Below, piece by piece: positions 16,130 to 60,714 of a stretch of DNA of 64,000 bases. The translations under genes were made by a program, and so were the position numbers. Below the pieces are notes generated by a model. It made no database searches. It saw only the letters and a program-made list of their open reading frames with translations, and was not told the DNA's origin. The stretch is from Schmidtea nova (Eukaryota): contig CM097884.1 of NCBI GenBank assembly GCA_044892505.1, positions 79,546,001 through 79,610,000 on the forward strand. The letters run 5' to 3'. How positions within the stretch are numbered: position 1 is the first letter of the stretch; the number at the start of each line of letters is the position of its first letter.

Positions 16130-16147
16130 TGGGGGCTCAGCCGGGAT
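16130..16147 (+). promoter_or_regulatory. Primer binding site, tRNA-Pro
   Basis: TGGGGGCTCAGCCGGGAT starts 6 nt after the LTR end and matches the known tRNA-Pro PBS TGGGGGCTCGTCCGGGAT at 16/18 positions. Confidence 0.88.
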
Positions 16148-17637: not shown

Positions 17638-17679
17638 GAGGCCAACGAGCCTTATTGAATGACCTAGCTAGGCATTATG

Positions 17680-20426: not shown

Positions 20427-20477
20427 AAAGAGTTAGTACAAAAAGATGAGGAAGTAAGAAAAGAAGCAGAAAAGGAA

Positions 20478-23400: not shown

Positions 23401-26400
23401 GTAGACCCAAGACAGATCCGGCAAATGTAGTCATCAGAAATAAGGATGAAAAGAGACAAGATCAATGGGAAGTATGTTTAAAGAAATTAAATAAAATCGC
23501 GGAGATAAAAGAAAAAGAGACAACACCAATATGTCAAGGTGAGGAATGGATATCGAAAACAATAATGGAAATATTGGCAATAATTGATCCGGAATTGAAA
23601 AAATACTGGCGTATAACTGAAATAAGCGAAAAAGCAAAGTCATTGCACAGCGCAATAGCACCCATCTTACCGGAATTCATAAAAGAAAAGACGAAGTCAA
23701 ATCATTTAGACTGGCAAGGAACCACTACGCTAATAAAGAAATTGACAGAAGGAGCGGAAACAGATAACAAATACGTGATAGCCATTGCATACACCATCTA
23801 CAACCTACTAACACTGAGTAGAGGTCGACCAAAACCCACTGCGTTGGAAAGACACATAAAAAATACCGCAAAAATTATAGCCAGAGAAATAGAACCATAC
23901 ATCATTAACAAAGGAGGATGGGAAACATTTATCAAAACTAACCAGAAGAAAACGCAAGCCAAGAATATGAAAAAGAAATTCGAAAAAATATTGGAAGAGT
24001 TAGAAAAAGAACAAGCAGGAACAGGAAACGCGAAGTCATCAATGAATTTGAGTTCTATAATAATGATGATGTTGATATGGATGATTAGCACCGATAGCGC
24101 AACAGCATTCGAAGTGTTTGATTGCGACCAAATGAAGTTAGGAGAAAAGTATTCATTGAGAGGCACGGAGCAATGCAAAGATGCAACTCCAGTAGAGTTG
24201 CAAAAGATTAAAAAAGAACAATGGTACCACGTGTATCAAGAAGCAGAACTCATAAAGACAATGGTGAATGAATGTAAGGTGCAGAAGACGAGATTCGCAT
24301 TCTACTGCGGGAGAGGACATTATTCAGCAATTGTCATGCCAGGAACGGAAAGAGAACCAATCGTGTTACAAGGAGAGGACTGCGAAGCACTATTTAAACA
24401 TGGAGAAGTAACAACAAGGGATAAAATCAAGATAAGAGGAAAGCCAGGAATGATGCTGCAACAGACATACTATGTAGCAGGACGGATTACGGGAGGAGAA
24501 GGATATTGTCAAGGAGAAACCTACCCGATATTCGGAGTACCCGCAACCAACTTAGTGGTGATGGATACGTATATAGTCGAATTGAAAAGCTATGAAGCAT
24601 TCTTTGAACCAACAACGGGAGAAATGAAAACGTTATCCATGTGTAAAATCGACAGGAGCATGTGTCAAACGGGAATGTCAACATTAGTATACAAACCAAA
24701 GGTGAACGAATGTCAATTACAACTGCTACAAGGAGCAAAGTTCGACGAAATCCAAGGAAAAACATTCCAGGAAGAAGACGATGACGACAAAGCTAGAGCA
24801 AAGCATCTCAAGGAAGCTTTAGAGAATAAAAAACAATTGAAACCGGATCATAGAGAAAAACGGATAGAGATGAGAGCCACACCAACAGTATTGATAACCA
24901 CAAATCAGGATGTGGGAATGAGATTCATAAAAGGGAAAGCAACCCTTAAGTGTAGTACAACGGTATACGAAACAAATTATCCAGGAATATATGTGTCAAA
25001 ACAAGAAGTACCAAATGCGAAACCCAAAATCGACACAATGGATATCAAACTACACCTGTATGTGAATAATAAAATGGATTTCCTATTCCATAGAGGACAA
25101 GCCTCATTACAAAAAGTGTACTACGATCTGATAAACAATGATTGTATACTGAATAGAGAAATATTAAAGACAAAGTTGGCCGTAGCGATTACGAATCCAG
25201 ATAGCGCGATGCCATTATTACCACTGAGAGAAGGACATTTCGGAAGAGTGGTCGGAGAAGCAATGTACGTATACATTTGTGAAAAGACACACGCGCCGCT
25301 AGCAGCAACAACGCAGTTGAAACCTGGAACCTGTACAAATGAGTTGGAAATCGATTACAAAGGAAAAGTACGATACGTTCAACCAGTGACGAGAATCATC
25401 AATCCACCAGGGTTTGAACCAAATCCATTCAACTGTAGTAATGCGTATGGACCACTTTATCAGAAACCAGATGGTAAATGGGTTATGTTCCCAGGAAGAT
25501 CCGAAGTGATAGCACCAAGAGAATTCGAGCTAATGCAGTTGTCAAAGGATAGGCAATTCAGCGACGTAGATGTCTCAAACAACGGAATATATAGTCCAAA
25601 GGATTTAGAAGCAGCAAGGCAGAATATATTATTTCCAGCGAGAAGAGAAGCATTACTGTCAAATATCGTAACGATAACGGGAGGAACGAATTATCGAGAA
25701 GGACCAAATTATGAATTGTTGCTGTCACCAGCACATTTCAAGAAAGCCACAGAAAATATGATGAAAGCAATGTGGGGAAGATTCCTGATATTTGGACAAA
25801 TGATGGCTGGAATACTAGGGGTTATATTAATAATACAAATCGTCAGAGTGATAATAACGCAAATGCTTGCGTGTTTTGACATCTACAAGAGAGAAAAGAA
25901 AGTGAATTGGAAAATGGTAGTAGGGTTTTTACCATTCCTTGCGAAAACAATGGTGTTGCATGGACACTCAAAAGATATCCATCGAATAAAAAGACTCCTA
26001 AAGATACTAGCAAAAATGAAGGGAACAGATGAAGAAGTAGGACGAAAATTTAAAAAGATAATGAATGACGAACAAGCAAGACAACAGCTCAAGAGAGAAA
26101 GAAAAGGTTTATGGGAGAGGGTGAAAGGATATAAAACCCAAAATGATTCGAGTGACGACGATGATGACGATGACGACTATAAGGGAGGACAAGTCTATAA
26201 GAACCAAGCACCCCAATACATTGAAAAGAATCCAGCCGACGCGTGGAAATGTTACGCACCTCCACCAACCATGTATCAAGAACCACTACAAGGAGGAAGA
26301 ACGACAACAATGCAAATGATGCCAATGACAAATGTATACCCCATGATACCAGAAGATTATAAAATGAGAAGATGTAGAAGTGTAGATCCACAAGGAGACG

Positions 26401-29400
26401 CACATACAATCGCCGTAATGTCATCAAACACAGGTCCAGTACTAACCACGACAATAGAGATTAACGGAAGAGAAATCGAAGCAATGATCGACACTGGAGC
26501 AAACATTTCCGCCATCGACATCAAATGGATACCACAGGAGCAAAGACGAGAAATAGAAAGGACAAACGTCCACGTAATTGCATGTAGCAAAGAAGTTGTA
26601 GAAGTAGCAGGAAGATGGTGGGTAAAAATACGCCACTTAAACACAGAAATCGATACGTACGTAGCAGTCATACCAGCATTAAGCGTACCTTGCATTATCG
26701 GAACAGATTTGATGCCAGCATTATTTAAAGAGATTGTAATCGATCTCGGAACAATGAGACTAAAAGATCGCACAGGACAAATATGCGCAATAGAAGCCAA
26801 AGTGACAAGTTCAAAGCAAATGATAATACCCGCAAGAAAGGAGAAAATATGTTATGTAAAAATAGATCCGACAATCCAAGGGGATATGATTTTCGAACCA
26901 AGCAAAAGATTCGAGAAAAGAAAAGCATTGCCAATGGCAAGAGGACTAGTCAACATAAATGATAATGGAGAAATCCCAATAAACGTGGTAAATTTCAACG
27001 AGGAGGATAAAATAATCTACGAAAACGAAAGATTAGGTAAATTAACCCCAATGATGGATATAGAACTACCAATAGCAGGAGCAGAGAAAGATAAAGAACC
27101 AACATGGAATATTGATAGTGAATTATTAAATGAGAATCAAAAGAAGCAATTAGAAAAACTGCTGACAGAGTATAAGGACATATTTGCAACATCCGATTTG
27201 GATCTAGGAACATGTGATGTCACACTACATACAATACCATTAACGGATGAAACACCAATTGCATTAAGACCGTACAAATTAGCGGAAGCACAGAAAGCAG
27301 TAGCGGAAGCAGAAGTGAAGAAAATGTTGGATGCAGAAGTAATCGAACCAAGTTGCTCACCCTGGCAATTTCCAGTGGTAATGGTAAAGAAGAAAGACGG
27401 AACACAAAGATTCTGCATAGATTATCGAAGATTGAACACAGTGACCAAACGAGATACTTACCCATTACCGGACATCAACGAAATGTTACTAACACTACAA
27501 GGAGCAGTACATTTTACGTCGTTAGATCTGAAAAGCGGATATTGGCAAATAAAAATGAAGGAAGAAGATAAGGAGAAAACTGCCTTTACCATCGGTAGAG
27601 ACTTATACCAATTTCGGAAAATGCCATTTGGATTAACCAACGCACCAGCATCATTTCAGAGATGCATGAATTTCGTCACCCATGGAATAAAACAGTGTAT
27701 GGTCTACATAGACGACTTATTGATTTACTCTAGTACATTCGAACAACACATACAGGATATTCGAGATGTATTCGTTAGACTTAGACAGTGGAAGTTAAAA
27801 CTCAAGCCATCAAAATGCGATTGGGCAAAAGAAAAGGTTACATTTTTAGGACATATAGTGTCAGCAAAAGGAAAAGAACCGGATCCTAGAAACATCGACA
27901 AGGTAAAAGAATGTCCAGTACCAAAAACAATAACCCAGATACAAGAGTTTCTTGGATTGTGTGGATACTACAGAAAGTTTATAAAAGATTACGCCGGAAT
28001 AGCAAAACCTATACAGGAACTAGTCAAGAAAGATGTATCATTCATATGGGGAGATGAACAACAAACAGCCTTTGAAACATTGAGAGATAAACTGATAACC
28101 GCACCTATATTGGTACACCCAGACTTCAAGAAGCCATTCCTACTTGCAACGGATGCAAGCGGATATGCAGCAGGAGCAGTATTAGGACAATACGACGACG
28201 AAGGAAAAGAACGGGTAATCGGATATTATAGCCGGACATTCAAAAAGCACGAAAAAAATTACTCGGTGACAGAACGGGAAGCATTAGCAATTATACTAGC
28301 AATTAAACACTTTAAATATTTATTATGGGGACACATCATCTGCATAACAACAGATCACCAACCGCTTGTATGGTTAGGACAGCATAAGGAAACATCCAGT
28401 AGATTAATGCGATGGGCAATGCAGCTACAGGAGTACTCACCAGACATAAAATTTAAATCAGGAAGAGCGAATGCGAATGCAGATTGTATGTCAAGACTGA
28501 CATTTCCAGAACTAACCGATCCTGATGTACAACGAATTTGTGTGTTAATAGCGGAAGATTTAGATTTTAGTGAGTTAAAGAAAGATCAACAGGAAGACAA
28601 AGAATTAGGACAGATCATAGAGTTCCTAACATCTCGAAATATGGAAGTATTCAAGGATAATAAGGAATTAAAGGAACATATAGGAAAGTATCAACATCGA
28701 TATATAATAAATAAAGGATGGTTGTTAATACAAGATGGTGAAAAGAGATCGATGTGTTTACCGGAAAACAGAAGGAAAGAGATAATGATCCAATACCATG
28801 ATGGAAAATTAGGAGGACATATGTCAGAGAAAAAGACAATAAATCGTATGAGACAAAAATATTATTGGCGAACAATGGAAGAAGATATAAAAGAATGGAT
28901 TAAAAATTGTCTAACTTGCGCAACTAGAAAGGATAGTGGGAAGAAATGGAAAAACCCACTACAACCAATGCCAATACCAGCAGAACCAATGACAACTATA
29001 GCAATGGACGTAATAGGACCATTACCAGAAAGTTTAAACGGAAATATTTATATACTGGTAATAACGGATTACCTGACGAAATTCCCGGAAGCATTTGCCA
29101 TGCAAGACCAAAAAGCAAAAACCGTAGCAAAAATTCTAGTGGAAGAAATATGTTGCAGATACGGAACTCCAAAACAAATACTCACAGACCAAGGAACTAA
29201 TTTTATGAGTGAGTTATTGAACGAGGTGACAAACTATTTCAGAATAGCAAAATTGAGAACTTCACCATATCACCCACAAACGAATGGACAAACAGAGAGA
29301 TTCAATGGTACATTGATTAGAATGCTATCCAACTATGTCAGCAGACACCAAACTGATTGGGACGAATACATAAAATTATGTTTAATGGCATACCGAATGT

Positions 29401-32400
29401 CGATACATGCAGCAACAAAACTAAGCCCGTTTCAACTCATGTATGGAAGAGAATGCAACATGCCCATAGATTTAGAGTATCAGCCACCATTATCGCAATA
29501 TATGGAAGATGACGACTACGTAACCAAATTCAAAGAAAGAATGCAGGAAATATGGAAAACGGCAGAACTCAACATTAAATTTTATCAGGAAAGTTATAAG
29601 GACTTACACGACCAGAAGAAAAACGTTAAAGCGAACGACCTAAAACCAGGAGACTGGGTGATAATAGAAACTCCCGAAATAATACCAGGAACGGTTAAGA
29701 AACTCCAAAGACCTGGAAGAGGACCTTATGAAATTATATACAAAAAGGACAATAATGTCAAAGTTAAGCTAATAAATCGACCGTTAATACGACCCATATA
29801 TGTAAACACCTGCAGATGTAAGAAGGTGCCTAAAACGATAACTACAACACCAGAAAATCGAATAATAACTAGATCACAAACAGCCAGGATAAATATGCTC
29901 AGAGCTAATGCAACTGAAGACGACAAAGCAGAAATAAGGCAAAAAGAAATCAGAAATAAAGAAATCATACTGAAGGCGAGAGAGATAATGGGAAGATGGC
30001 ATGTTAGAGACGAAGCAGGCATATCAAGGGACATTAGACATATAATTAGCCGTTACGCACAAGGATTACCAACCGAACCAATTATTTCTGAATTATTGAT
30101 AAAAATCCCGGAAATACTCTTATTGAAAGATGTAGGAGGACAACCAGCCTTACACAATGCGATAGAGTGTAAAAACATTGAAAGAGCAAAAGAATTCCTA
30201 AAAATCGCAAAAGAAACAAACCAAAACTTGGACGTAGGGAATCGTGAACAAGAAACTCCATTAATGACAGCCGCAATCCACCAAGCAGATAAAGAAATGA
30301 TAGATCTATTGATAAAAGCTCATTTCAGTTGGACAGAACGAGATAGAGAAGACAAAACAGTGCTAAATCACGTAATATGGAGTTCTCACCAACCAATGCT
30401 GAAATACATAATAGCTAACTCCACTTGGGAGATAGACGAACTAGTTAAAGGAGACATTATCAAAGAGGCAATCAAAATTGGTAAATGCAACACGATCCGT
30501 AAGTTAATCAAATGGAAACGACCAGAAGATGATACATGGGTCTTAGACATAAACGAAGTGTACAGCGAAGGACAAAACGCACTGTTAAGATACCTTTTGA
30601 AATTTACTTGTGATCAGAAGACATTACTAACCTTATTAGACAGGGGAAACATAAACATCACAAAGAATGAAGAAGAACACAAATTCGATAAAGAGAAGGA
30701 GGTCTTATTCAACAAAATTAGGAAATGGTGTGCGAAACCACTTGATAAACTAATAACATACAAAGACATAAATAATTTTAACGATAAATACCAGACGATA
30801 GTAAGTGAGTACGAGGAATTAGTAAAAATCTTAAACCATCCCGAAAAATGCAAACAGGTTTTGGAGAAAAAAGAAAGAGAAAGTAACAAGAAACTCACAC
30901 CACTCTTCAAAGCAGAAGCACCATATCAAGCTAGACTAGATGCGATACAAGAAAAAGCAAAAGAATTGTTACCGGAATTCGAGAATAGTAAACATGCACT
31001 GGAAATACTCGGTGCATTAGTTGAAAAAGTACACGCATACGCAAAAGGAACATACAATGGTAACGATATAACGACTATAAAAAAGGAGATGCCAGTAACA
31101 TTTTTACTACCAAAGGACAGAATAATGCCCATACATAGAGCTCTACGAAATGGCAAAGATAAAAAAGTAATGGAAATTGCAAGAGTAATGTTAAGCTGCG
31201 GAAGCAACATGAATATGGTAGACGAGAAAGGAGATACACTCATGATATTTGCAGCAAGGGCCAAAACGAAAACAAAAGTGCTGGAAGAACTATACAAAGC
31301 AGGTGCAGGACTTACAGGAAAGACAGACAAAGATAATTCAATTCTGGATGTAGCATTACTAACACATAATTGGGAAATGGTCAACTTCATTAAAACAATC
31401 TCAAATCAGGAAGAAATAGATTACCTAACTGATACGGTCAGGAAACCCAGTGTACTAACAATGATGCATAATGTCGAACTAACAGAAGCAATACTTACGT
31501 GGATAAATCCGAATACTAACGAACCAGCATTCAGGATTAATGAGTTTACAGAACATAACCAAAATTGGTGCATAAGAAGTGCCTTAATAACGTATAAATG
31601 GCCAGAGATATTGAAGATGTTTATGGAAAGAAAGGATCTAAGGATCACAACCAGCCCGAAGGAAGAAAAGTACACAGGCAAATGGAAAGAATTGATGAAG
31701 ACATACATCAACAATTGGATCAAGGCCAAAAAGGAAATCTTGGAATATAAATCCACTAACAAAGTAATACCGGAGCAGGTAGAAACACAAGAATTTGAGG
31801 CAAGTAATCTAACGACATTAGCATATGCAAAATTGATAGAAGAAATCAATGTCGAGGACGACATTTTCGACGAGCCAGGGGGAGATGACAATACAGATAG
31901 TGACGACGATAACAACTCAGAAAATTCGAACGATCACGAACCACCCGATAAAGAGGAAAACGAGAGAAAAGACAAGAAACGAGACAAAGAAGAAAAGAAA
32001 AATGAAGACGAAAAACAAAAAGATGAAGATGGAGAACAAGGAAAAAACGACCAAGGAGATAAAAATGACACCCAAAGAACAGGTTATAAATCAACCATAA
32101 AACCATTCTTCAAACCAGAATTACTATTATTAACAGTGATTTTAACGTTAATTAACCCAAGTCAAGGAATGACATGTGAAGAAAGGGCAATAATACAAAT
32201 AAAAAACGCGAAAGGAATCGAACGAGTATGTTGGTCAAAAAAAGACAAAATCACGGAACAAAATAGCCCGATGGATTGCAGAATCTCAGAACACGAACAA
32301 GAAATCATAGAGATCAACGACCTAGATCTAAATACCTGGTACAAAATATGCACCGTTAGAAAACAAAAGCATCCAAGATCACACAACACAATCGCATGTG

Positions 32401-35400
32401 CAAAATACCAAACACCTAAAGCAGCCATGACAATACAACAGTCACCCAAAGGAGATTACATCATCGAAAAATGTGGAAGAACAGAGACACAGGGAACAGA
32501 AAACAAAAAACCCCAGGCAATAGATAAGCAAACAACACCAACTATACGAATTACAATAGAGAGGCCCGAAGCGAGAGTTGCCACAAACGAAACCGAAAGA
32601 GTGACTTACCAAATGGAAGTATTATGCTTAGCACTCATACTAATAATAATAAAACGACTAGAGGAAGGGATAGAAATCGAAACTATGACAATAACAGAAG
32701 TAGAAGATACACAGAATACTAACATAAAATGTTGGGCGAGGAATAACGAGGAAATCGGCGTAAATGAAATAAGGAAAAGTCGAAAACCAACAACGAATAA
32801 AGTAATTAAAGTATCCGAAGTAAAAGCAGATAAAACGTACAAACTATGCCTACTAGAAAAAGAGAGAAACAAGAAAGGTACCACAAAATGTAAAACATTC
32901 CAACCTGGAGAAGTAATAAAGTTCAGAAGGAGAACGAGGAAGAGAAATAAACAAATCAAGCGGAAAGTAAACATAACATTAGAAATAAAAGAGATAGAAC
33001 CAAATGTGAAAGGAGTATGCTGGAGGAAGTACGAAAAAGAAGTAAATAAAAGAACGACACCACAATGTCGAACAAACACAGGAACAACGACGATTCAAAT
33101 AAAAGGTTTAGAAAGTAAACAAACCTACGAAATATGTTTGGTAAAGAAAAATGATCAGATAACGATAAACGACCTAGAATGCGGAATATATACAACTTCA
33201 TCCGGAACAAGAACCAAAACGTTAACACGGAAAAATAAAAGGAAACAACAAAACAAAGAAAAACCGAAGTACACCACTACCTTTAAAAACAATAAACAAC
33301 CAACAAACCAAGAAGTTACGACGAAACCCGAGAGAAAAACATCAGCAACTCTAACATTATGGAAAATAGAGAATAAAACATTAGAAATATGTTGGATAAT
33401 AGTACAGAAACATATAAGAAGACAATCAAGAGAATGCAGAAAAACAAATAAAGAAATCAAGATCGAAAAACTACAATTTAATAGCGAGTATGAAGTATGC
33501 GCAATAGAAATAATGGACGCACTAGGAAACCAACAAGAAAGATGCGAAACCTACTATACACCAGCGAACGCAACATCAAAAGGAATAACAAGGAAACTCG
33601 AATTCAGGGAACTAAGCCAAACGAATGAACAAATGGACGCAGAAAAAACAATAACCGACCCTCAAGCAAAATGGACACCCGAAGAAGTTATCAAAGAAGT
33701 CAAAAGAAAGCAAGAGGAACGAGAACAATTAATGAGAAAACTAAAGGGACAATATGGAATAATGTTCAACCAAAGCGAATCTATACAAACAGACGAGAAT
33801 AAAGAAATTAAAGAACTAATCGGCTTAGGAATATTAACAGCGACCATACCAGTAATAATCGCGTTATCAGCTATATGGATACGCAAGATAAGCCCAAGAA
33901 AATCAACAACCCAATGGCTAAATATAGATAATACAAGCCATGGAGTCGAAATACTAGAAGCACGAGAAGAACCAAGATCGACCAGGAATGAGAAAGAAGC
34001 AAAAGGCGGAAAACTGGGAATGAACAACGAAGACAAAGAAATAGAAGAGATTAAAAGCAAAGAGACGAAATATGAAAGGCGAACCAGAAGCCTACCGCAG
34101 AGTTCAAAATGGTTGGGTCTAACAATAATATTGACATTAATCAATAGGGAAGAAGCAATAAACCCACAGACAGGGATAAAAGTAATAAATGTTCAGGAAG
34201 TCGAGAAAATATGTTGGTATAGAGAAGATGAACCAATTGGAGAAAATAACCCACTAAAATGCATAATCCGAAAATCCGACCAGGATATAGTACGAATAGA
34301 AGAAATGGATGGAGGGACCATGCATCGGATATGCATAATAAAAAAGGAAAAGAAGTCGGGGCTACCTAAGACAGTCGTATGTCAAAAATATGAAACACCT
34401 AGACTTGAATGGTATAGAGTAAAACCAACAAAGAAAGAAATCAAAAACACAATAGATCAACCAGCAACTCAGATAAGAAACACAACGGATAAACCAGGAG
34501 AAGGGGAGAGAAGCACCAATAACACGAGAGAAAGAATATCACCTCAACAGGAGTGCGTATGCATAGCATTAATACTAGCAATGTCCAAACGTCTCGACAG
34601 AGGAATAATAATAGAACAAATGGCCATAACAATAAGAAAAACAAGCAGCAACAAACTATGCTGGGGAACATACAACGAACCAAGGAAGGAATACCAAGTT
34701 CAGACAAGCGACGAATCACAAACAAACAAGGAAATCGAAATACAAGAAATACAAATGAATGAAGAAGGAAGTATATGTATCTGGGAGAGAGGAATCCAAG
34801 AGGGAATAGAGCATTGCAAGACATTCCAAAAAGGAGAGGTACTGAAATTCGATGAAGAAAAATTAACAAAGACAGAAAGAACTCTGACAATAACAGGACT
34901 CGATCAAACAGTTAAAGGAATATGTTGGACAAAGCATAACCCAGAAGGGGAAGAAGACAATCTAACCCACTGTAAAGAAACAGGGAATAAGGAAAAAGTC
35001 GAATTAAAGAAAATGGAAGTAAATAAGACATACGCGATATGTACCTTCACCAGAAAAGGTTCAGAAAAACCAGAATGCGGATTATATCAGATCTCAGAGA
35101 AACTTCAACAACAGATCAAACCAGGAAACGTGGAAAACCGAACAAAAGAAAATAACGTCAAACAACTACTAAACCGCCATTGGTCTACCCAAGAAGTAAT
35201 GAACAAAGTCAAGAGTCAAATACAAAAAGAGAAGAAGCCAGAGGCTCAAACCCAAAATGAGATAAAAGCGAATCAGAAGAAAATCAAAGCAACAAACCGT
35301 GGAAAAACCGTAATAGGACTAATCAGTATAGGAATATTAATAGCATATGGAATACTGACGACAAGCATAATAGTATATTGGAGATACAGAAAGAGAAACA

Positions 35401-35564
35401 AAGCGACAGCCATACAATGGCCAGATATCAAAATTATGAAACAAGGAATAGAAATACCAGAAGGGATACAAAAAGAATTTCAAAGAAGAACGAAAGGTAA
35501 AGAATTCTGGAAACAAATAGAAGATAAAGAACGATACGACAGAAGGACAATAATGAAGGTATAG
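20478..35564 (+). CDS. pol: 5028-aa polyprotein: Ubl x3 / AT-hook / Bcl-2-like / Env / PR / dUTPase-like / RT / RNase H / IN / ankyrin x2 / two FN3-like membrane proteins
   Basis: Uninterrupted 15-kb ORF in frame with gag. DTGA (26490), YIDD (27705), TDASG, HHCC, D-D-E and GPY motifs are all intact. Confidence 0.96.
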   Translation: METEINRGERKEIWKRGMMVIMPNKSVFRFQYNVKEEVRILFNKVNQMVPGVTKLPREAFLQIEGAPKVKLEVTDIWENMGVVETKRNVMIIKEIEPEEIPPPVRHETRISRIFKGKMIRRRLKEIDELEKKMRKVEVIEDKSEPTPEIDKNEPELTENIQWETNQIAHINMLRNTTREFSDEEEDSDISSLAGDLLNESEDENKEREVIKTSEPTQIKVDEIQKLLDNSLEVIYNEEFMDKKQYRKFMKVLLQMNYKEWLQDREVDMLNRYVGKLIEEPLLNYTISIIINTSTPRIWIKTPFTDDIYRWVEDRLGSSYKNKFIYSQNRLVKKRTHLVETGIWPGEITLLSICDEKEEENLQEVAKEANTCFERRIKPRLEYEKERVLRKNLNSLIEQIIPQVKKHRKELMRSEYEKLKRCIECIRDTSHTRWSQISHDKLIAKMGKTMFRQGKITDLKISVELPNEDTKEIEVVADCTIKELINVINETLVQREPEDEWEDDIIIQYNEHVLWDHDERRLYKIGIWDNHQTIHVIRMDDTPRETAKDEKRERERRKKVVRKLQQIVEIYRNWRTWPEWENVLEKLNLNRRIRTPVEKQWNEKGKCWEPKEGEYEEEYEREMEDDCKPEMGRVCMVTRKATPIDLDGPETVAIWLEKEKQKTEEFVELLKTNAHGKRKIIKGLADFFVVNGEDITCLRKVAKAIAEYKRVNEWCPEQLDHVIRKWRNQEFSQEIPQKVHLRIIYPNKDKEELWVGIAEKIRDIKKKLRYEPPFHLQHQGRSLDNSLEIGITPAQLDLMNTLTVEAIAGQPLKRKEENHKPHGSISTPSPMKSVLTPGTSSRRSETTPRGNREMTPPQPYDVDEILTDSDDMIEELTELTEEKDDNIFERIQELPTTIQATNPGETEVEEEIIIEEINDLAEDETRGTNVENVRLTQEMERWLEERANEPRDVTEETGRATRFVETGTGMDRRPRGRPKTDPANVVIRNKDEKRQDQWEVCLKKLNKIAEIKEKETTPICQGEEWISKTIMEILAIIDPELKKYWRITEISEKAKSLHSAIAPILPEFIKEKTKSNHLDWQGTTTLIKKLTEGAETDNKYVIAIAYTIYNLLTLSRGRPKPTALERHIKNTAKIIAREIEPYIINKGGWETFIKTNQKKTQAKNMKKKFEKILEELEKEQAGTGNAKSSMNLSSIIMMMLIWMISTDSATAFEVFDCDQMKLGEKYSLRGTEQCKDATPVELQKIKKEQWYHVYQEAELIKTMVNECKVQKTRFAFYCGRGHYSAIVMPGTEREPIVLQGEDCEALFKHGEVTTRDKIKIRGKPGMMLQQTYYVAGRITGGEGYCQGETYPIFGVPATNLVVMDTYIVELKSYEAFFEPTTGEMKTLSMCKIDRSMCQTGMSTLVYKPKVNECQLQLLQGAKFDEIQGKTFQEEDDDDKARAKHLKEALENKKQLKPDHREKRIEMRATPTVLITTNQDVGMRFIKGKATLKCSTTVYETNYPGIYVSKQEVPNAKPKIDTMDIKLHLYVNNKMDFLFHRGQASLQKVYYDLINNDCILNREILKTKLAVAITNPDSAMPLLPLREGHFGRVVGEAMYVYICEKTHAPLAATTQLKPGTCTNELEIDYKGKVRYVQPVTRIINPPGFEPNPFNCSNAYGPLYQKPDGKWVMFPGRSEVIAPREFELMQLSKDRQFSDVDVSNNGIYSPKDLEAARQNILFPARREALLSNIVTITGGTNYREGPNYELLLSPAHFKKATENMMKAMWGRFLIFGQMMAGILGVILIIQIVRVIITQMLACFDIYKREKKVNWKMVVGFLPFLAKTMVLHGHSKDIHRIKRLLKILAKMKGTDEEVGRKFKKIMNDEQARQQLKRERKGLWERVKGYKTQNDSSDDDDDDDDYKGGQVYKNQAPQYIEKNPADAWKCYAPPPTMYQEPLQGGRTTTMQMMPMTNVYPMIPEDYKMRRCRSVDPQGDAHTIAVMSSNTGPVLTTTIEINGREIEAMIDTGANISAIDIKWIPQEQRREIERTNVHVIACSKEVVEVAGRWWVKIRHLNTEIDTYVAVIPALSVPCIIGTDLMPALFKEIVIDLGTMRLKDRTGQICAIEAKVTSSKQMIIPARKEKICYVKIDPTIQGDMIFEPSKRFEKRKALPMARGLVNINDNGEIPINVVNFNEEDKIIYENERLGKLTPMMDIELPIAGAEKDKEPTWNIDSELLNENQKKQLEKLLTEYKDIFATSDLDLGTCDVTLHTIPLTDETPIALRPYKLAEAQKAVAEAEVKKMLDAEVIEPSCSPWQFPVVMVKKKDGTQRFCIDYRRLNTVTKRDTYPLPDINEMLLTLQGAVHFTSLDLKSGYWQIKMKEEDKEKTAFTIGRDLYQFRKMPFGLTNAPASFQRCMNFVTHGIKQCMVYIDDLLIYSSTFEQHIQDIRDVFVRLRQWKLKLKPSKCDWAKEKVTFLGHIVSAKGKEPDPRNIDKVKECPVPKTITQIQEFLGLCGYYRKFIKDYAGIAKPIQELVKKDVSFIWGDEQQTAFETLRDKLITAPILVHPDFKKPFLLATDASGYAAGAVLGQYDDEGKERVIGYYSRTFKKHEKNYSVTEREALAIILAIKHFKYLLWGHIICITTDHQPLVWLGQHKETSSRLMRWAMQLQEYSPDIKFKSGRANANADCMSRLTFPELTDPDVQRICVLIAEDLDFSELKKDQQEDKELGQIIEFLTSRNMEVFKDNKELKEHIGKYQHRYIINKGWLLIQDGEKRSMCLPENRRKEIMIQYHDGKLGGHMSEKKTINRMRQKYYWRTMEEDIKEWIKNCLTCATRKDSGKKWKNPLQPMPIPAEPMTTIAMDVIGPLPESLNGNIYILVITDYLTKFPEAFAMQDQKAKTVAKILVEEICCRYGTPKQILTDQGTNFMSELLNEVTNYFRIAKLRTSPYHPQTNGQTERFNGTLIRMLSNYVSRHQTDWDEYIKLCLMAYRMSIHAATKLSPFQLMYGRECNMPIDLEYQPPLSQYMEDDDYVTKFKERMQEIWKTAELNIKFYQESYKDLHDQKKNVKANDLKPGDWVIIETPEIIPGTVKKLQRPGRGPYEIIYKKDNNVKVKLINRPLIRPIYVNTCRCKKVPKTITTTPENRIITRSQTARINMLRANATEDDKAEIRQKEIRNKEIILKAREIMGRWHVRDEAGISRDIRHIISRYAQGLPTEPIISELLIKIPEILLLKDVGGQPALHNAIECKNIERAKEFLKIAKETNQNLDVGNREQETPLMTAAIHQADKEMIDLLIKAHFSWTERDREDKTVLNHVIWSSHQPMLKYIIANSTWEIDELVKGDIIKEAIKIGKCNTIRKLIKWKRPEDDTWVLDINEVYSEGQNALLRYLLKFTCDQKTLLTLLDRGNINITKNEEEHKFDKEKEVLFNKIRKWCAKPLDKLITYKDINNFNDKYQTIVSEYEELVKILNHPEKCKQVLEKKERESNKKLTPLFKAEAPYQARLDAIQEKAKELLPEFENSKHALEILGALVEKVHAYAKGTYNGNDITTIKKEMPVTFLLPKDRIMPIHRALRNGKDKKVMEIARVMLSCGSNMNMVDEKGDTLMIFAARAKTKTKVLEELYKAGAGLTGKTDKDNSILDVALLTHNWEMVNFIKTISNQEEIDYLTDTVRKPSVLTMMHNVELTEAILTWINPNTNEPAFRINEFTEHNQNWCIRSALITYKWPEILKMFMERKDLRITTSPKEEKYTGKWKELMKTYINNWIKAKKEILEYKSTNKVIPEQVETQEFEASNLTTLAYAKLIEEINVEDDIFDEPGGDDNTDSDDDNNSENSNDHEPPDKEENERKDKKRDKEEKKNEDEKQKDEDGEQGKNDQGDKNDTQRTGYKSTIKPFFKPELLLLTVILTLINPSQGMTCEERAIIQIKNAKGIERVCWSKKDKITEQNSPMDCRISEHEQEIIEINDLDLNTWYKICTVRKQKHPRSHNTIACAKYQTPKAAMTIQQSPKGDYIIEKCGRTETQGTENKKPQAIDKQTTPTIRITIERPEARVATNETERVTYQMEVLCLALILIIIKRLEEGIEIETMTITEVEDTQNTNIKCWARNNEEIGVNEIRKSRKPTTNKVIKVSEVKADKTYKLCLLEKERNKKGTTKCKTFQPGEVIKFRRRTRKRNKQIKRKVNITLEIKEIEPNVKGVCWRKYEKEVNKRTTPQCRTNTGTTTIQIKGLESKQTYEICLVKKNDQITINDLECGIYTTSSGTRTKTLTRKNKRKQQNKEKPKYTTTFKNNKQPTNQEVTTKPERKTSATLTLWKIENKTLEICWIIVQKHIRRQSRECRKTNKEIKIEKLQFNSEYEVCAIEIMDALGNQQERCETYYTPANATSKGITRKLEFRELSQTNEQMDAEKTITDPQAKWTPEEVIKEVKRKQEEREQLMRKLKGQYGIMFNQSESIQTDENKEIKELIGLGILTATIPVIIALSAIWIRKISPRKSTTQWLNIDNTSHGVEILEAREEPRSTRNEKEAKGGKLGMNNEDKEIEEIKSKETKYERRTRSLPQSSKWLGLTIILTLINREEAINPQTGIKVINVQEVEKICWYREDEPIGENNPLKCIIRKSDQDIVRIEEMDGGTMHRICIIKKEKKSGLPKTVVCQKYETPRLEWYRVKPTKKEIKNTIDQPATQIRNTTDKPGEGERSTNNTRERISPQQECVCIALILAMSKRLDRGIIIEQMAITIRKTSSNKLCWGTYNEPRKEYQVQTSDESQTNKEIEIQEIQMNEEGSICIWERGIQEGIEHCKTFQKGEVLKFDEEKLTKTERTLTITGLDQTVKGICWTKHNPEGEEDNLTHCKETGNKEKVELKKMEVNKTYAICTFTRKGSEKPECGLYQISEKLQQQIKPGNVENRTKENNVKQLLNRHWSTQEVMNKVKSQIQKEKKPEAQTQNEIKANQKKIKATNRGKTVIGLISIGILIAYGILTTSIIVYWRYRKRNKATAIQWPDIKIMKQGIEIPEGIQKEFQRRTKGKEFWKQIEDKERYDRRTIMKV
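21330..22890 (+). other. Three ubiquitin-like (beta-grasp) domains in the polyprotein (~21330-21535, 21849-22090, 22689-22890)
   Basis: Second copy LKISVELPNEDTKEIEV...TIKEL...IQYNEHVL..ERRLYKIGI....TIHVI follows the ubiquitin pattern. The other two are weaker. No terminal GG. Confidence 0.55.
23540..23940 (+). other. Bcl-2-like domain in the polyprotein
   Basis: BH2-like IEPYIINKGGWETFIK (compare WIxxxGGWxxF), preceded by helical segments. The BH1 position lacks the canonical NWGR. Confidence 0.6.
24048..25970 (+). other. env: Envelope glycoprotein domain, chuvirus G-like: signal 24048-24107, ectodomain from 24108, TM ~25782-25856
   Basis: Signal-like SIIMMMLIWMISTDSATA, then FEVFDC...SL....C...Q...V.EC.......CG..H.S.....C....G. 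About 560 aa of Cys-rich ectodomain and a TM helix. Confidence 0.8.
26430..26780 (+). other. Aspartic protease domain
   Basis: AMIDTGANIS and CIIGTDLM. Confidence 0.93.
26795..27055 (+). other. Degenerate dUTPase-like beta domain between PR and RT
   Basis: IPAR......V...ARGLV.....IPINVVN......I....RLG pattern. Catalytic motifs not evident. Confidence 0.55.
27130..28500 (+). other. Reverse transcriptase and RNase H
   Basis: RFCIDYRRLN, LDLKSGYWQI, MPFGLTNAP, YIDD, FLGH, TDASG, EREALAI, TDHQPL and NADCMSR. Confidence 0.97.
28530..29880 (+). other. Integrase (HHCC, DDE, GPY/F)
   Basis: H...GGH...CLTC, MDVIGP, TDQG, YHPQTNGQTERFN and GPYEI. Confidence 0.96.
30050..31650 (+). other. Two blocks of ankyrin repeats in the polyprotein
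   Basis: GQPALHNAI, ETPLMTAA, KTVLNHVI and QNALL, then MPIHRAL, GDTLMIFAA and NSILDVAL, at ~33-35-aa spacing. Confidence 0.85.
32121..35564 (+). other. Two tandem paralogous type-I membrane protein units with Cys-containing FN3-like repeats (4 + 3 modules)
   Basis: Signals at 32121-32168 and 34110-34157, TMs at 33816-33881 and 35310-35381. Repeated module CW...C...I..L....Y.IC...C..Y.T. Confidence 0.7.
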
Positions 35565-36046: not shown

Positions 36047-36138
36047 ATAAATAAAGCGAAAAACTGTAAATATGTAAAAATAAAAACAAGAAAAATCAAA
36101 AATAAATGACAAGTCGAATGTATATATTATTGTAGAAA

Positions 36139-37515
36139 ATGGACAGAGAAGAACGAACAATCGAAATCTTGAGATTAGAAAACAGAAAATGGAGCAAGAG
36201 GCTCACATGCGGGAAGTGTAACAATTTATTACGAGAACCTAGACAAACGATATGTGGATGTAGAATATGTACAAAATGTATACAAGAATTAGATGCAACA
36301 GGAATAACAACATGCCCAGAATGTAAAGAAGGAAGAATAGTGTTGGACGAAACCAGAACGGATAAAGCAACCCAGAGAGAAATTATGAGCACCATAACGG
36401 AGTGCGTAAATACACCTTGTACATGGCAAGGACAAATAAGCAATCTAGAAAATCACATGGAAAATTGCGAAGAGAAAAGAGCCGAATGCGAGAAGTGTCA
36501 ACAGATAATAATTCTAAAGAAGAAAGAACAACACAAGGACGAATGTAAAGAAGAAGAAATCGCATGCAAGTATTGTGAAACTCGAGAGACAAGGAGGAGA
36601 ATCGAAGAAGAACACTTAAATATAACAGAGGAGAAAGTATGCGGACAATATGTAAGCAAATGTCCAAACAATTGCGAAATAACAGAAGAAATAAAGTTAC
36701 ATGAACATTGGAAAATATGTACCGAAAGGCCAAGAGAATGTCCATATAACAAGCATGGATGCAAGGAAAAGCGGACGCGAAAAACAATGAAACAACACTT
36801 GGAGGAAGCAGCATTAATGCATGTGGAGATGACAAACGAGGCGGCAAAAGAAACAGAACAGACAATCCAGAAACTGGAAAAGGAAGTAGAATCACATAAA
36901 ATAATGATGAGTTTACTACTAGAAACAAGAGAGCAGTTTGAACTAACTCGCAAAAGAATGGAAGAAAAAATAATAGCCATAGAAGAATTGGGAAAAGGAA
37001 TGAAAATACAATATAATCAATTAATACGAGAAATTGACGAAAGAAAGGACTTACCAATTGCACCTTACCTATGGAAAATAACAGATTTTAGAGACAAACT
37101 AACAGAGGCCCGAAATATGACTAAAACAGCAGTAATAAGCCCACCATTTTATTTATGGAAAAATGGGGTTAAAATAAGATTGAAAGTATACCCAAATGGA
37201 GACGGAAGAGGACAAGGAACACACGTGTCAATATTTTTCTCGTTATGTAAAGGAGAATACGATGACCTAATAGAATGGCCCTTGAAAGTAGGAGTCATTA
37301 TAAGAATCAAAAGTATAGGAAAACCAGTAGAAAAGTTCTTTGAAACAGACAAACATACGAGTACAAGCGAAAAACCAACAACAGAATGCGGACTAGCAGC
37401 AGGAGAACCAATGTTTATAAGGAAAGAAAACCTATGGGAGCGACTGTATGCAGACACGCTATACATAGAGATGGAGAGGCATGAGAAAACAGACAGAAAA
37501 GGATGGTTGGCGTAA
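36139..37515 (+). CDS. TRAF-family protein (RING, TRAF zinc fingers, coiled coil, MATH), intronless
   Basis: CGKC...CGCRICTKC...CPEC, several TRAF-type zinc fingers, and MATH motifs YLWKITDF, SPPFY and YPNGDGRGQGTHVSIF...GEYDDLIEWP. Confidence 0.95.
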   Translation: MDREERTIEILRLENRKWSKRLTCGKCNNLLREPRQTICGCRICTKCIQELDATGITTCPECKEGRIVLDETRTDKATQREIMSTITECVNTPCTWQGQISNLENHMENCEEKRAECEKCQQIIILKKKEQHKDECKEEEIACKYCETRETRRRIEEEHLNITEEKVCGQYVSKCPNNCEITEEIKLHEHWKICTERPRECPYNKHGCKEKRTRKTMKQHLEEAALMHVEMTNEAAKETEQTIQKLEKEVESHKIMMSLLLETREQFELTRKRMEEKIIAIEELGKGMKIQYNQLIREIDERKDLPIAPYLWKITDFRDKLTEARNMTKTAVISPPFYLWKNGVKIRLKVYPNGDGRGQGTHVSIFFSLCKGEYDDLIEWPLKVGVIIRIKSIGKPVEKFFETDKHTSTSEKPTTECGLAAGEPMFIRKENLWERLYADTLYIEMERHEKTDRKGWLA

Positions 37516-37626: not shown

Positions 37627-38689
37627 ATGGGAAATATAGAGGTAACCTTACAAGAAGTAACCGTACATCAAGACGAAATGATCAGAAATCACATGGAGCG
37701 GATTGGGATATGGATTCACGCCTATTATCGAAAACAGGAGGAATTAGAAAGACAAACCCAAGCACTAAGAGAAGCCGAGAAATCGAATCAAAGAAGTCGA
37801 GAAAAAATAGAAGAAGTCTACAAACTGCTAAGACAACAAAACGAATACTACAAAGGGATGATGAAAGAGCGACGAGAGGATAGGGATAGACAACAGATAA
37901 AAACAGACCATAAGATTCAGTCAATCACAGAACAAGCAAGATATTGGAAAAAAAGAGGCAAAAGACTCTTACAAGGAAGCAAGGGAGATAATAGAACGAA
38001 CAGCGTACAGCGATGATTGGAAACTGTTTAAAGAGATCGATGAATTAAAAGAAGAATTAGGGAAAAAGATCAGTCAAGAAGCGTCAAATAAAGTATGGAG
38101 TAAGAAAAGACAACAATTCATCAGGGAACAAGCCAAGAAAATTAAAGAATTAACTCACCAAGTGCAAAGAATGGGAGAAGATTTAGCCAATCAAGAACAA
38201 TTAAAAGGTATGCTGACCGGAATGTGGAATCACAAGGAAGAAAACATGAAAAGAGACATAAATGGATATCAAGGAGTGATTACCCAGAAGAAAATAGAAT
38301 TAAAAAGAACTAAAGAAAGACTGGAAGAAACGAGGCAGAGTTATGAAGAGAACATAACAAATTTGACAAAAGAAAACGAAGAACTGAGAAAGAAGCTAAC
38401 AGAAAAACCAGTACCCACAAAGGAAACAAGTATCACAGCAGCAGTGACCGAAATGATAGAGAAAGAAGAGAGAGAGAAAAAATTAGCAGAACTAGAAAAA
38501 CAAATAGAAACCCTAACAGAGCAGGCGAACTATCTGGAATACTTATTAGATGAAGAGATCCAGATATCCCACACGTACCGAGAGGAAGTGGAAATGTGGA
38601 GGAGTACGGTAATATGGATGCCACTCCCCATAAATCAGGTGGAACCTCAAGACGAAGGTTTTCACGAACCTAACGAAACCCTCGTGTAA
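37627..38689 (+). CDS. Long coiled-coil protein (~353 aa) split by a 1-nt frameshift in an A7 run at 37948-37954
   Basis: Removing one A joins ORF 37627 to an open frame (KEAKDSYKEARE...) that continues into ORF 38162-38689. Confidence 0.7.
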
Positions 38690-38768
38690 ATGAGCGGAAA
38701 CCAATTGTAAATAGATGATGTAAAATAAAAAGCGTCAAGCTGTATTGACTCCTATGTAAAGATAGAAA

Positions 38769-39329
38769 ATGAGAAAGCTCGCAATACCAATACTCCTAGG
38801 GTTAATAACCATCACCCTACAGAGAGAAGATCTACAACTTACCGAAACCCAATTACGAGTTCTACCCGACAAAACCTACCAAAAAGTAGACAGCCTAATC
38901 GAAGAAGTAATTAAAGAAATCAACGAATTCCGACAGAAATATCCCCACAATCAAGATCATCAAATCCAACAAATCTTAGATAACCAACAACTGAAACTAA
39001 AAGAAACCCAAAAAACCCTGAAAGAAGGTAGAGAGCCCATAAAAAGCCTAGCCCAAGCTGAAATAGAATATCAAGAGAAATGGATCATAGCAATCATCAT
39101 AATCCTCTCAATCAGCGTAACTATCATCGCAATCACAATCCTGATTGCCTCCTACCGGATAAAAATCCTCAAACAGAAACAAACCATCGTCAACCAAACA
39201 TCAAGGCGAGACAACCGAACCCAAAGACGTATGAGAAACCATCTAGATCGAATTCAGACCCACTACGAATTAGCTACAATCAATGAGAGAACTCAAACCC
39301 AACCCAATGCGAGCCGGAGGATCGAATAG
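38769..39329 (+). CDS. Small type-I membrane protein (signal peptide, helical ectodomain, TM, basic tail), 186 aa
   Basis: MRKLAIPILLGLITITLQ and WIIAIIIILSISVTIIAITILIA. Confidence 0.75.
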   Translation: MRKLAIPILLGLITITLQREDLQLTETQLRVLPDKTYQKVDSLIEEVIKEINEFRQKYPHNQDHQIQQILDNQQLKLKETQKTLKEGREPIKSLAQAEIEYQEKWIIAIIIILSISVTIIAITILIASYRIKILKQKQTIVNQTSRRDNRTQRRMRNHLDRIQTHYELATINERTQTQPNASRRIE

Positions 39330-40853
39330 ACTTTGTGAACATTTCTGATGAACCTTTGACTATCCTGTGACAATAATCTGATAATATTCAACTATCCTAT
39401 GACAAATCTTATGATGTATATAAATTCTATCACCTTAAGTGATTTTCTTTGTGTTTATGTGTATATCTGTAAAACTTTTTATGTATGATGTTATAAGTAG
39501 ATATGTATAATTAATTGCGGGACGCAATTTTAGGGGTCCCCGAGTGATGTTGGGCCCACCAATTGGTCTAAAAAGGCAAAAATATTGTACTAATTTAAAC
39601 AATAAATACAAATAATAACCACAAAAAACATTCGAAAAACCTAAATTAAAAATTAAAATAAAATAATAAATAATAAATAATAATTACTAAATTTCCAGCA
39701 AAGGAAGAAAATCAAATTGACACGAGAACGAGCAGTATGGGGGTCTGAAATAAGAAAATTACAAATAAAATCAAATAAAAGTACAATTAATTGGTTAATT
39801 ACTTGAAAAAATCGAGACCACCCAGCGAGAAATCTGAACCGGAAATTTAAAATGGTTTATATTAAAATAAAATAACAAAATTACTTTGATGGACGGCCTG
39901 ATCCTGATTGGTCAATCTGACCAACTGGATCAGTATAAATACCGATCCAAAAATCATACAAAAAACACCTAAAAACTTAGCTACCGAACTAATCTATCAT
40001 AGTCAGTTACACCAACTTTGATACGACGAATATTGTGTAAAATTTTGGAAACGCTGCATCTTGGATTTTAAGAGTAAATTTTGTTGTATTGTATTTGCAT
40101 TAATTTTATGATATGTTTACATGATTCCCATTTATTTCATTTCATTTAATATAATTTATTACTATTAATTGCTCTATTTTTCTTATGCTATTATTTTATG
40201 ATATGATAAATATACTTCCTCAGTAGCTCACGCTGCGAGGGAGCAAGCCGTAAATGTGGGATTTCACCGTTCCACAAGATGGTGAGCAGAGTTTTTATTG
40301 GTATTTTTTATTTAATTTAATTTTATCGGAGGTTTCACGTTACGGTAAAGTTGTGCAGGGACAAGGACACGAGTAAAATTAGTAGACAGTGTTTAACATT
40401 AGTCAATTAACATTCGATCAGACAGGAGAGAATAAACTACAGTATCAATTATCATGTCAATCGATTTCGCATATGCACACGATTTTTTTTGAACCCACAT
40501 AGCTGATCGAAATAATGTCCGGACACACCGAGACGATTTCGACATTTCAACGATAATTTCAATTAGGATATAAATAACCACATAATCAGATCGACGCTAC
40601 TGATTGAATAAGTAAAATCGTAACCTGATCGCTGTAAATAGCGCAGGTGATAGTATGTAAATTTTTAATAAACATATCCCGATCGCTGTAGATAGCGACG
40701 GTGTTAATTGAATAGCTTAGAAAATATTTTTTTATTCCTCCCTTTCATATTTTTTTTGTTTTGTTGATCAACGAGAGAAACACATTTCATCAGGTCTCAC
40801 CAAAATTTGCGGATTCGTCACAGTAAAATTTATTAGCATTATTATTTTCTCAG

Positions 40854-41354
40854 ATGAAATCAACGATACTGGATGAATTTCTAACAACCCAACGTCGTGT
40901 GGCACGGGACGAAAATCCTCAAATCCGGACGCAACAGAAGAAATTGAAGCCGCTTCCACAGGAACTTCTCAGAACGCTAAATGCATTGATGTATAAATGG
41001 AGACGGGAACTAGGAAAGAAATGTCCATTTTCGATTTGGGCCGGTGGATTAGATACCATCATATATCGTGGAGGCCCCGGATGGGAAATTCAGGACGAAA
41101 GAGACCGGGAGACGACAGCTCTGTTCATCATAGTGGTGACAGACAGTGAAGGAAATCCAACGACAGTGATCCATTGGGGATATGTCTCACCGCTCAAGTT
41201 GCTTCAATTCGGGTTGATTCCGAATCACCTACCGAAAACGTGCCATGGACGCCCCAAACTAAACTGTTCGATCGCTCACATCCGACGAGATCCAGTCAAT
41301 CACGGATTGCATATTACCCCCGTTCACGGCCTCAAGCGAAGCGTTTTTTACTAA
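40854..41354 (+). CDS. LTR ORF-A, 3' LTR copy
   Basis: Same as 14369-14869 except Y>C and M>I. Confidence 0.6.
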   Translation: MKSTILDEFLTTQRRVARDENPQIRTQQKKLKPLPQELLRTLNALMYKWRRELGKKCPFSIWAGGLDTIIYRGGPGWEIQDERDRETTALFIIVVTDSEGNPTTVIHWGYVSPLKLLQFGLIPNHLPKTCHGRPKLNCSIAHIRRDPVNHGLHITPVHGLKRSVFY

Positions 41355-41537
41355 ACATTATATTCACATTTTTATGAACTAAACTATTTCCATAAATTAA
41401 ATGGTATTGATCTGTGTTTTGTTTGTTCTTAGTTAAATTTATTTCTATTTATTTAATCATATAATTTTTTACTCGACGGATAATATTAATCATTGGTAAC
41501 ATAATTGCTGCATCATAAAATGGGTTTGTTATTTAGT

Positions 41538-60660: not shown

Positions 60661-60714
60661 ATTTAAAAATTATATTTAATTAATATTATTGTTTATATTT
60701 GTTTTAAATACTCG

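Follow-up and report, generated by a model that had tools for sequence, protein, structure and literature searches.

The Element and Its Polyprotein

The window, a stretch of 64,000 nucleotides from the genome of Schmidtea nova, contains what is by its layout a 29.5-kb Burro-like Ty3/gypsy LTR element (13063-42605). The two LTRs (~3.06 kb each) share 99.7% identity over 3062 nt, and an unoccupied copy of the target repeat of the element lies near 45600. Pfam profiles give the order CCHC gag, fusion glycoprotein, protease, reverse transcriptase (RT), RNase H, integrase and ankyrin repeats, with a TRAF-like gene past the polyprotein stop:

13063-16123, + strand: 5′ LTR with TG..CA ends, preceded by the target-site duplication AATA
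18510-20426, + strand: gag-like frame with CCHC zinc knuckles (Pfam), which stops at an in-frame TGA in this copy
24039-25880, + strand: env-like fusion glycoprotein with internal signal, ectodomain and membrane helix (PF24664 and hydropathy)
26448-29831, + strand: protease, RT, RNase H and integrase (Pfam)
30150-31346, + strand: ankyrin-repeat block between integrase and the first C-terminal unit (PF12796, E = 5e-15)
36136-37515, + strand: accessory TRAF-like gene (RING, zinc fingers, MATH), a separate gene 3′ of the polyprotein stop
39548-42605, + strand: 3′ LTR with TG..CA ends, followed by the target-site duplication AATA

The in-frame TGA separates gag from the remaining polyprotein in the window copy, and a single open frame of 5640-5690 aa is present in 20 of the 70 listed copies of the window family (defined as “F1”). 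This family is large, as all the scored candidates matched (70/70 and 150/150, from 3472 and 2234 candidates). The window polyprotein ORF spans 20427-35564 (5045 aa), and its last 1150 residues comprise two likely membrane protein units (A and B). Contigs from four runs of unrecorded kind also span this region, which does not bear on its expression. A recurring RINML-type word occurs after the integrase and may mark a protease release point of the cargo.

The fusion glycoprotein is of the Monjiviricetes type (PF24664, E = 1.1e-72, match at 24111-25880) and is encoded between gag and pol, upstream of the protease. A reading of the DNA made from the sequence alone (the sequence-only reading) had placed the two units where env normally sits. 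This holds loosely, but the fusogen is upstream, and ~700 residues, including the ankyrin repeats, part the integrase from the units. Replacement of env by the units was rejected, as neither unit matches a fusion family and the env-like fusogen is at 24111-25880.

Burro/GYPSM1, a planarian giant Ty3/gypsy element of ~30 kb, has long LTRs and a huge polyprotein in which env lies in frame between gag and pol, and its cargo includes ankyrin repeats, TRAF/MATH, RING and a Bcl-2-like region (PMC6431247). The window element, which we compared with the published Burro1-4 by description, shares the size (~30 kb), long LTRs (3.06 kb, with the AATA duplication), in-frame env and ankyrin and TRAF cargo. 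It differs in that the polyprotein is longer (to ~5690 aa) and TRAF is a separate downstream gene. The text of the Burro description names no FN3 domain or second membrane protein, and “fibronectin” and “FN3” occur 0 times each in it (PMC6431247). In the accessible parts of the literature, Grohme (2018) and Lee (2026, Dev Cell) aside, FN3 membrane proteins are not described for Burro or for any other gypsy element; these two studies or supplements could already annotate such domains.

Two Related Units with Seven Modules

Each unit has a putative internal signal, an ectodomain with a conserved internal hydrophobic segment (hydA or hydB), a stalk, a membrane helix and a tail. The features are:

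32112-32168, + strand: probable internal signal of unit A (hydropathy; homologous ends in unit B and in families F7 and F6, below)
32169-32420, + strand: module M1, predicted FN3-like strands B-G (models, fold searches)
32610-32669, + strand: hydA, conserved internal hydrophobic segment with a cysteine, likely lumenal and not cleaved
32670-32909, + strand: module M2, without the second cysteine, low-confidence model
32952-33200, + strand: module M3, predicted FN3-like strands B-G (model, fold search)
33330-33569, + strand: module M4, in unit A only, defined by alignment
33570-34097, + strand: stalk, membrane helix (33819-33881) and tail of unit A, with two N-glycosylation sequons common to F7
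34098-34157, + strand: probable internal signal of unit B (hydropathy, homology)
34158-35096, + strand: ectodomain of unit B, with a fold suggested by paralogy
34158-34403, 34545-34604, 34605-34835 and 34860-35096, + strand: M5, hydB, M6 and M7 of unit B, respectively
35097-35564, + strand: stalk, membrane helix (35310-35378) and tail of unit B, and polyprotein stop

The order of signal, ectodomain, membrane helix and tail had been described as occurring twice by duplication. We found 30% identity between units A and B over 411 columns (E = 8e-57), with clear helices and signals that are probable from sequence. The seven CW motifs that had been reported are present, and four of them fall in unit A and three in unit B. 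All 21 module pairs score above shuffled sequences (≤10/500 shuffles reach the score), and the best partners are M1-M5, M2-M6 and M3-M7, leaving M4 unpartnered in unit B. The other motifs of the sequence-only reading were less general: C..Y.T is exact in just 4 of the 7 modules, and the second cysteine is absent from M2 and M6. The linkers and tails quoted in that reading do occur in the translation. The internal hydrophobic linkers and the tails of A and B are related beyond chance (0/1000 shuffles each), but the likeness of the WTPEEV/WSTQEV stalks, which had been listed with them, is not significant when taken alone (124/1000 shuffles). A module tree supported 3 of 12 branches, was mostly unresolved, and does not give the order of the module duplications. 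The units are duplicates of one another and likely type I membrane glycoproteins.

Predicted Fold of the Modules

We searched a profile of the seven modules against 1.84 billion representative proteins and matched 50 proteins, with a best E-value of 3e-9 by summed repeats. Pfam fn3 is present in 44 of the 50 (27/28 at E ≤ 1e-5; 17/22 at E ≤ 1e-9), and 48 have a G[VIF]CW motif. As single domains score ≤19 bits, these matches show likeness of fold and not descent. No relative from a planarian element and no clear animal donor was detected among the representatives. A word-based search of 5.8 billion proteins with unit A and with seven- and ten-module alignments found no homologue, which by the tool's own account is weak evidence.

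An AlphaFold model of the signal and M1, which used 18 aligned modules, has seven strands (pLDDT 83), with the signal set as strand A at ~70. This M1 model matches FN3 domains with a Foldseek probability of 1.0 but an E-value of 0.006, and aligns with Z = 9.3 and rmsd 2.6 over 84 residues. In a model of mature M1-M3 (mean pLDDT 54), M1 (57-73) and M3 (mostly ~80) have six strands each, M2 is weak, and hydA is a low-confidence helix. This model matches tandem FN3 fragments with E = 4e-6. The alignment of mature M1 with fibronectin FN10 (1fna; Z = 8.2) starts at residue 14, and M3 aligns with LAR FN5 (6x39) from residue 721, vs. 713 for the first model. Strand A thus appears to be absent from mature M1 and is not confident in M3, and the signal fills that place if left on.

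The sole conserved Trp precedes the E-F loop by 26-32 residues, in the register of strand C. The strand-B tryptophan of FN3 was not found in the modules, and the one HMMER alignment that placed Trp there did so at the cost of a 9-residue gap. The PF00041 cut-off of 25 bits was not reached (best module 13.3 bits, E = 0.099; 1/7 modules listed). Both cysteines of the F-G pair are invariant in 15/15 aligned modules, the bond itself being predicted. In combination, the modules are predicted to be FN3-like sandwiches of strands B-G without strand A, with likely C-C′ and F-G disulfides. The proposed FN3-like fold thus stands on the profile search, two AlphaFold models and fold searches, with a strand A that is apparently missing. 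Module by module, the M1 and M3 models match FN3 strands B-G and that of M2 is of low confidence.

Compared with FN3 domains of known structure (FNfn10, 1fna; LAR FN5, 6x39; Tie2 FN3a-c, 5utk), strands B-G of the modules follow in the same order and at the same spacing (Z = 8.2-9.3, rmsd 2.6-2.7). The modules differ in the apparently missing strand A, a Trp in strand C, two likely disulfides, 10-18% identity and scores below the Pfam cut-off. FN3 domains of the ELFN1/ELFN2 type, the closest described kind with an F-G pair, have the same cysteine pair between strands F and G and the same order of FN3, stalk, helix and tail. The ELFN-type matches are not significant (9y2f_C, E = 0.063; 25tv_C, E = 1.5; Fn3_ELFN, E = 0.14 and 0.08), and all 11 rows of the search that gave 9y2f_C are FN3-bearing proteins. 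Unlike LRR-FN3 proteins (ELFN, FLRT, LRFN), the units and the preceding block gave no LRR family in the Pfam scan. Bacterial-type FN3 arrays (RGVCW), which the profile search had matched, have CW in strand C and the same 29-residue spacing to the E-F loop in 125 of 147 repeats, but reach ≤19 bits per domain and have the strand-F cysteine in just 10 of 147; by sequence the likeness is probably convergence. A class I cytokine receptor, a type against which a structural comparison had been suggested, was rejected: WSXWS and C-x-W are both absent from the translation, the motif here being CW.

Foldseek found no match to viral models at E ≤ 0.001. In a search for a host donor in this genome, Fn3_ELFN gave four matches, all below the cut-off, and 24 host loci (~20 chosen from 150 fn3 rows) scored ≤10.7 bits, none with the F-G cysteine motif. 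Atlas matches to fn3 were 0.89 for the window modules and 0.92 for two of the families below (F2/F3), and are leads only.

Related Giant Families in the Same Genome

Pfam profiles for the fusogen, Bcl-2, MATH and BIR, when run against the genome, revealed six further giant families (F2-F7). In all six fusogen-bearing families examined, the polyprotein ends with signal, ectodomain, helix and tail, and the ectodomains have 1, about 3, 4 or 4+3 FN3-like domains. Of these six, two have strong and two have moderate support for FN3, and for the remaining two it is no more than a lead. In an RT tree of F1-F5 (F6 and F7 left out), F1, F2/F3 and F4/F5 form three well-separated lineages, and the RT of F2-F5 is 46-50% identical to that of the window.

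F7 has a pol 84-87% identical to that of F1 and ends with one four-module unit. This unit and unit A share 37% identity, and its tail resembles that of unit B. The ankyrin blocks of F1 and F7 share 45% identity. Among 20 TRAF-anchored F7 copies, 16 structural cysteines are kept in 19/19 or 19/20, and dN/dS is 0.09-0.30. From these sequence comparisons, F1 likely arose by tandem duplication of an F7-like single four-module unit, after which unit B likely lost M4 and now varies more.

In F4/F5, the integrase is directly followed at 8 of 9 loci by a signal, one FN3-like domain with an F-G pair, and then stalk, helix and tail; at the ninth, the sequence ends early. The window profile scores 14.9 and 12.1 bits against F4 (0/300 shuffles each) and 5.0 bits against F5 (10/300 shuffles), and hhalign gives only 7.8% for the F4/F5 domain vs. 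the window modules. At 5/5 loci, F2/F3 encode a signal and an ectodomain of ~330 residues, in which three stretches look FN3-like by eye, followed by a helix and a tail. This ectodomain has no detectable homology to the window modules (hhalign 1.5%; 73-91/300 shuffles). The likeness of the window stalks and tails to those of F2, F4 and F5 is also not significant. Given this lack of detectable homology in F2/F3, the recurrence at the polyprotein end may be convergence. In F2-F5, the tails close with ETFV, STLV or STLC, endings that fit a PDZ-binding pattern. The elements also carry other host-like membrane cargo as separate genes.

Membrane Topology

Each unit starts with 10-11 hydrophobic residues after basic ones (by a crude hydropathy scale) and has one membrane helix with basic residues on its C-terminal side; helix A is invariant in 17/17 copies. 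We infer two signals from the hydrophobic stretch, the preceding basic residues and a shared end that resembles a cleavage site. The four homologous signals end SQG, EEA, GEA and TEA, directly ahead of strand B, and have an n/h/c-like pattern by sequence, although AlphaFold drew the first as a strand. Units A and B and the F7 unit share a strongly conserved internal segment (E..C.ALIL...KR). In F7 it ends MED and is not cleavable at the matching place. As a membrane helix, hydA and the F7 segment are borderline, and hydB is too short and polar. The stalk sequon is kept in 34/35 F1 and 19/20 F7 matches and the sequon after M4 in 26/26 and 12/20, respectively. Given these sequons, common to F1 and F7 at 37% identity, and the basic residues behind the helices, the ectodomain would be on the lumenal side. 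The internal segment would then pass into the lumen and pack on M2 or M6, perhaps through its cysteine. The stricter proposal that this cysteine must pair with the unpartnered CW cysteine was weakened, as the F7 signal has a cysteine there too.

We consider a different topology very unlikely. In it, the signals would be strand A of M1 and M5, or the hydrophobic segments would be stop-transfer helices, so that some modules would be cytosolic or each unit would give two products. The setting of the first signal as strand A by AlphaFold (pLDDT ~70) is consistent with this, as are the acidic residues before and KR after hydA (with a weak helix score on the crude scale) and the apparent paralogy of hydrophobic segments and signals. 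However, hydB would be a poor helix by length and polarity, stop-transfer would orient A and B oppositely, and conserved sequons and cysteine pairs lie downstream of the segments. The signal ends (SQG, EEA, GEA, TEA) also differ from the MED of the F7 segment.

Selection and Copy Variation

The units are under purifying selection. For F1 we took the 20 copies ranked highest by their likeness to the query, a ranking that can bias cysteine counts, and used the 17 with an unbroken frame over the region; the other three, which carry stops or frameshifts, were dropped. In them, 30 of 31 cysteines are invariant (17/17), and module dN/dS is 0.31, or 0.23 for shared variants (0.09-0.36 for the modules of unit A and 0.29-0.51 for those of unit B). 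A second sample comprised 20 loci found via an upstream anchor and selected for being likely outliers. The 4+3 set is present in 12 of them, although one of these lacks part of M5. Another two have an interruption inside the fetched stretch, and six have larger deletions (five with broken frames, one open). No structural cysteine is missing from more than one copy of this sample. The 4+3 set in these outliers indicates that module number, the variation of which among copies had been suggested as a check, is stable within F1 and differs between families. That the units are a functionless passenger, i.e., a host exon that was captured and then multiplied through slippage or recombination, is hardly credible and largely refuted by the selection data in two families: part or all of the units is deleted in 6/20 likely-outlier loci, but 5 of these 6 copies are frame-broken, dN/dS is well below 1, and the cysteines are near-invariant in F1 and F7.

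At eight loci of F6, we found no match to the window fusogen, RT or gag. This family keeps protease and ankyrin. At its end, a signal is followed by a single M1-type module and then the stop, and an anchor is absent. Among 20 BIR-anchored copies, all four module cysteines are present in eight, and the signal core has a lysine in 11. Module dN/dS is 0.44-0.45, vs. 0.15-0.22 for ankyrin and 0.11-0.14 for MATH. In 30 query-ranked copies all cysteines are kept, indicating that ranking biases such counts. The sequences are suggestive of decay of the module where the particle genes are gone and the host-directed cargo is kept. As the remnant also lacks the membrane anchor and M2-M4, its decay may follow truncation and not loss of the fusogen.

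Possible Functions of the Units

The functions that had been offered for the units were attachment, decoy receptors and superinfection block. Comparison of the families modestly favors the first, given the recurrence in 6/6 fusogen-bearing families and the decay in F6. We thus favor, with slightly more doubt than confidence, the view that the units are attachment or adhesion proteins on element particles, beside a separate fusion glycoprotein. The element protease would free the ankyrin block, and each internal signal would re-enter the ER, where signal peptidase would cleave it in the manner of the fusion glycoprotein. The modules would carry disulfides and glycans, with the internal segment drawn into the lumen and packed on M2 or M6, possibly by its cysteine. 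The FN3-like proteins would be released on budding particles together with Gag and the fusogen and would bind a surface molecule of the host, and may engage target cells before the fusogen acts.

Paramyxoviruses and herpesviruses have separate attachment and fusion proteins. Their two-component entry resembles the arrangement here, by analogy only, in that a receptor-like, fast-evolving stalked glycoprotein is found beside a fusion protein. The folds of their attachment proteins differ from that of the window units. Against this reading, many class III-type fusogens bind receptors unaided. A complex prediction of the fusogen ectodomain with hydA-M2-M3-M4-stalk scored 0.00, in a run in which alignments were not used and the fold of the partner was uncertain, and it counts neither for nor against attachment. 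The identity of unit A between F1 and F7 (37%, vs. 84-87% for pol) is a divergence pattern usual for host-facing proteins. As the ankyrin block diverges almost as fast (45%), rapid divergence does not single out a role on the particle.

A somewhat unlikely but substantial alternative is that the units are host-directed mimics on the expressing cell, i.e., decoy receptors or adhesion molecules that alter signaling, survival or niche contact. The PDZ-like tail ends of F2-F5 point to such action in the host cell. The architecture is receptor-like, and the F-G cysteine pair is as in ELFN-type FN3 (E = 0.06). The element is rich in host-interfering cargo such as TRAF, ankyrin and Bcl-2-like proteins (see also PMC6431247), and one report describes a Burro1 cargo as protecting stem cells (PMC13465017). 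However, the non-autonomous F6 strongly constrains ankyrin and MATH, yet its FN3 remnant decays. The protein also stays in the frame of the particle genes in 6/6 families, whereas TRAF and BIR are separate genes, and the Pfam scan recognized no signaling domain in the window tails.

Superinfection exclusion, in which the units would bind or mask the receptor of their own or related fusogens in the producing cell, is in our view decidedly unlikely. That the units co-occur with the fusogen and decay in its absence fits exclusion as well as attachment, and the fast, family-specific divergence is also consistent with it. Retroviral exclusion, however, is usually done by env itself, and hundreds to thousands of candidate copies from several families share the genome.

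Implications for Burro-Like Elements

The feature is real and under selection. It represents a new class of cargo for a known kind of giant retroelement, and a slot that recurs in the architecture of such elements. Descriptions of enveloped retrotransposons usually include a single env. Combining attachment with the family comparison, we suggest tentatively, and with appreciable doubt, that Burro-like elements are enveloped virus-like retroelements with a fusogen of negative-strand-virus type and a captured adhesion-type FN3 attachment protein. The latter would have been kept at the polyprotein end across deep lineages, with the number of domains tuned (1, ~3, 4, 4+3), and would here be disulfide-stabilized and without strand A.

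If true, a six-stranded FN3 with two disulfides would be a structural variant worth solving. The families provide a natural series, from one domain to seven plus a decaying remnant, that makes the question of function testable. A second conserved, fast-evolving glycoprotein would imply either cell-to-cell movement with a separate attachment step or a reshaped host-cell surface. Either outcome would be relevant to whether Burro elements qualify as true endogenous viruses, and to the links with planarian stem cells and tissue-specific expression that have been reported for them.

Accessory genes and leader of the window's element

Within the Burro-like Ty3/gypsy element, a sequence 3′ of the 5′ LTR (16130-16147) resembles a primer-binding site of the tRNA-Pro type. 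Two adjoining tandem arrays, with units of 29 nt and 32 nt, lie upstream of gag (17396-17964). Each LTR carries two ORFs, for which Pfam returned no match in either copy. The following ORFs were called inside the element.

14342-14869 and 15020-15643, two ORFs of the 5′ LTR
40827-42128, the same set repeated in the 3′ LTR
16456-16959, RING-finger ORF between the 5′ LTR and gag (Pfam, E 4e-11)
37901-38689, accessory coiled-coil protein, no significant Pfam match
38766-39329, accessory small protein with a signal, a helical ectodomain and a membrane helix, no significant Pfam match

Immediately upstream of the fusogen signal we recognised by eye a Bcl-2-like region (about 23540-23900), for which the Pfam scan of the window gave no match; Bcl-2 matches in the fusogen-bearing giant families F2 and F3 are weak (Pfam, E 0.002-0.007).

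Two ORFs and a transposase fragment with Pfam matches lie outside the element.

3521-4012, DDE transposase fragment
60667-61221, TBP-like ORF (E 9e-14)
62660-63181, cyclin-like ORF, weak

Elsewhere in the genome, MATH/TRAF-domain matches are densely clustered at G000:C2:405-455 Mb, many of them in tandem and with short open frames. These are probably host genes.

Copies and contig joints lacking FN3-like units or modules

One copy of the window's family (L034) has lost, in frame, the hydrophobic segment before module M2 together with M2 and M3. Another, broken copy (L028) retains only unit A, the first of the two paralogous FN3-like membrane proteins, and its spacing suggests recombination between the tails of the two units. 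Low-depth contig joints (31867 to 34117 and 33708 to 35470; four contig runs) bypass unit A or unit B, and may be derived from single-unit relatives such as the sister family F7.

Cargo genes in other giant families

Downstream of the polyprotein stop, F2-F5 carry a gene with acidic motifs that resemble, by eye, those of DEDD-type exonucleases; neither of the two post-stop genes scanned had a Pfam match to this type.

L042:3087-4535, DEDD-like motifs
L045:2951-3943, DEDD-like motifs
L054, DEDD-like motifs
L056:7009-8928, DEDD-like motifs
L059:6452-8398, DEDD-like motifs

The giant family F6 encodes a protease, ankyrin, TRAF and BIR-RING proteins plus further small membrane genes (loci L093-L098, L106, L107 and L108-L157). 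One copy adds an optional 484-aa signal-ectodomain-helix gene (L107:5688-7139), which is not listed in L094 or L097. F6 is very abundant, with 3125 candidates in the genome, and apparently non-autonomous.
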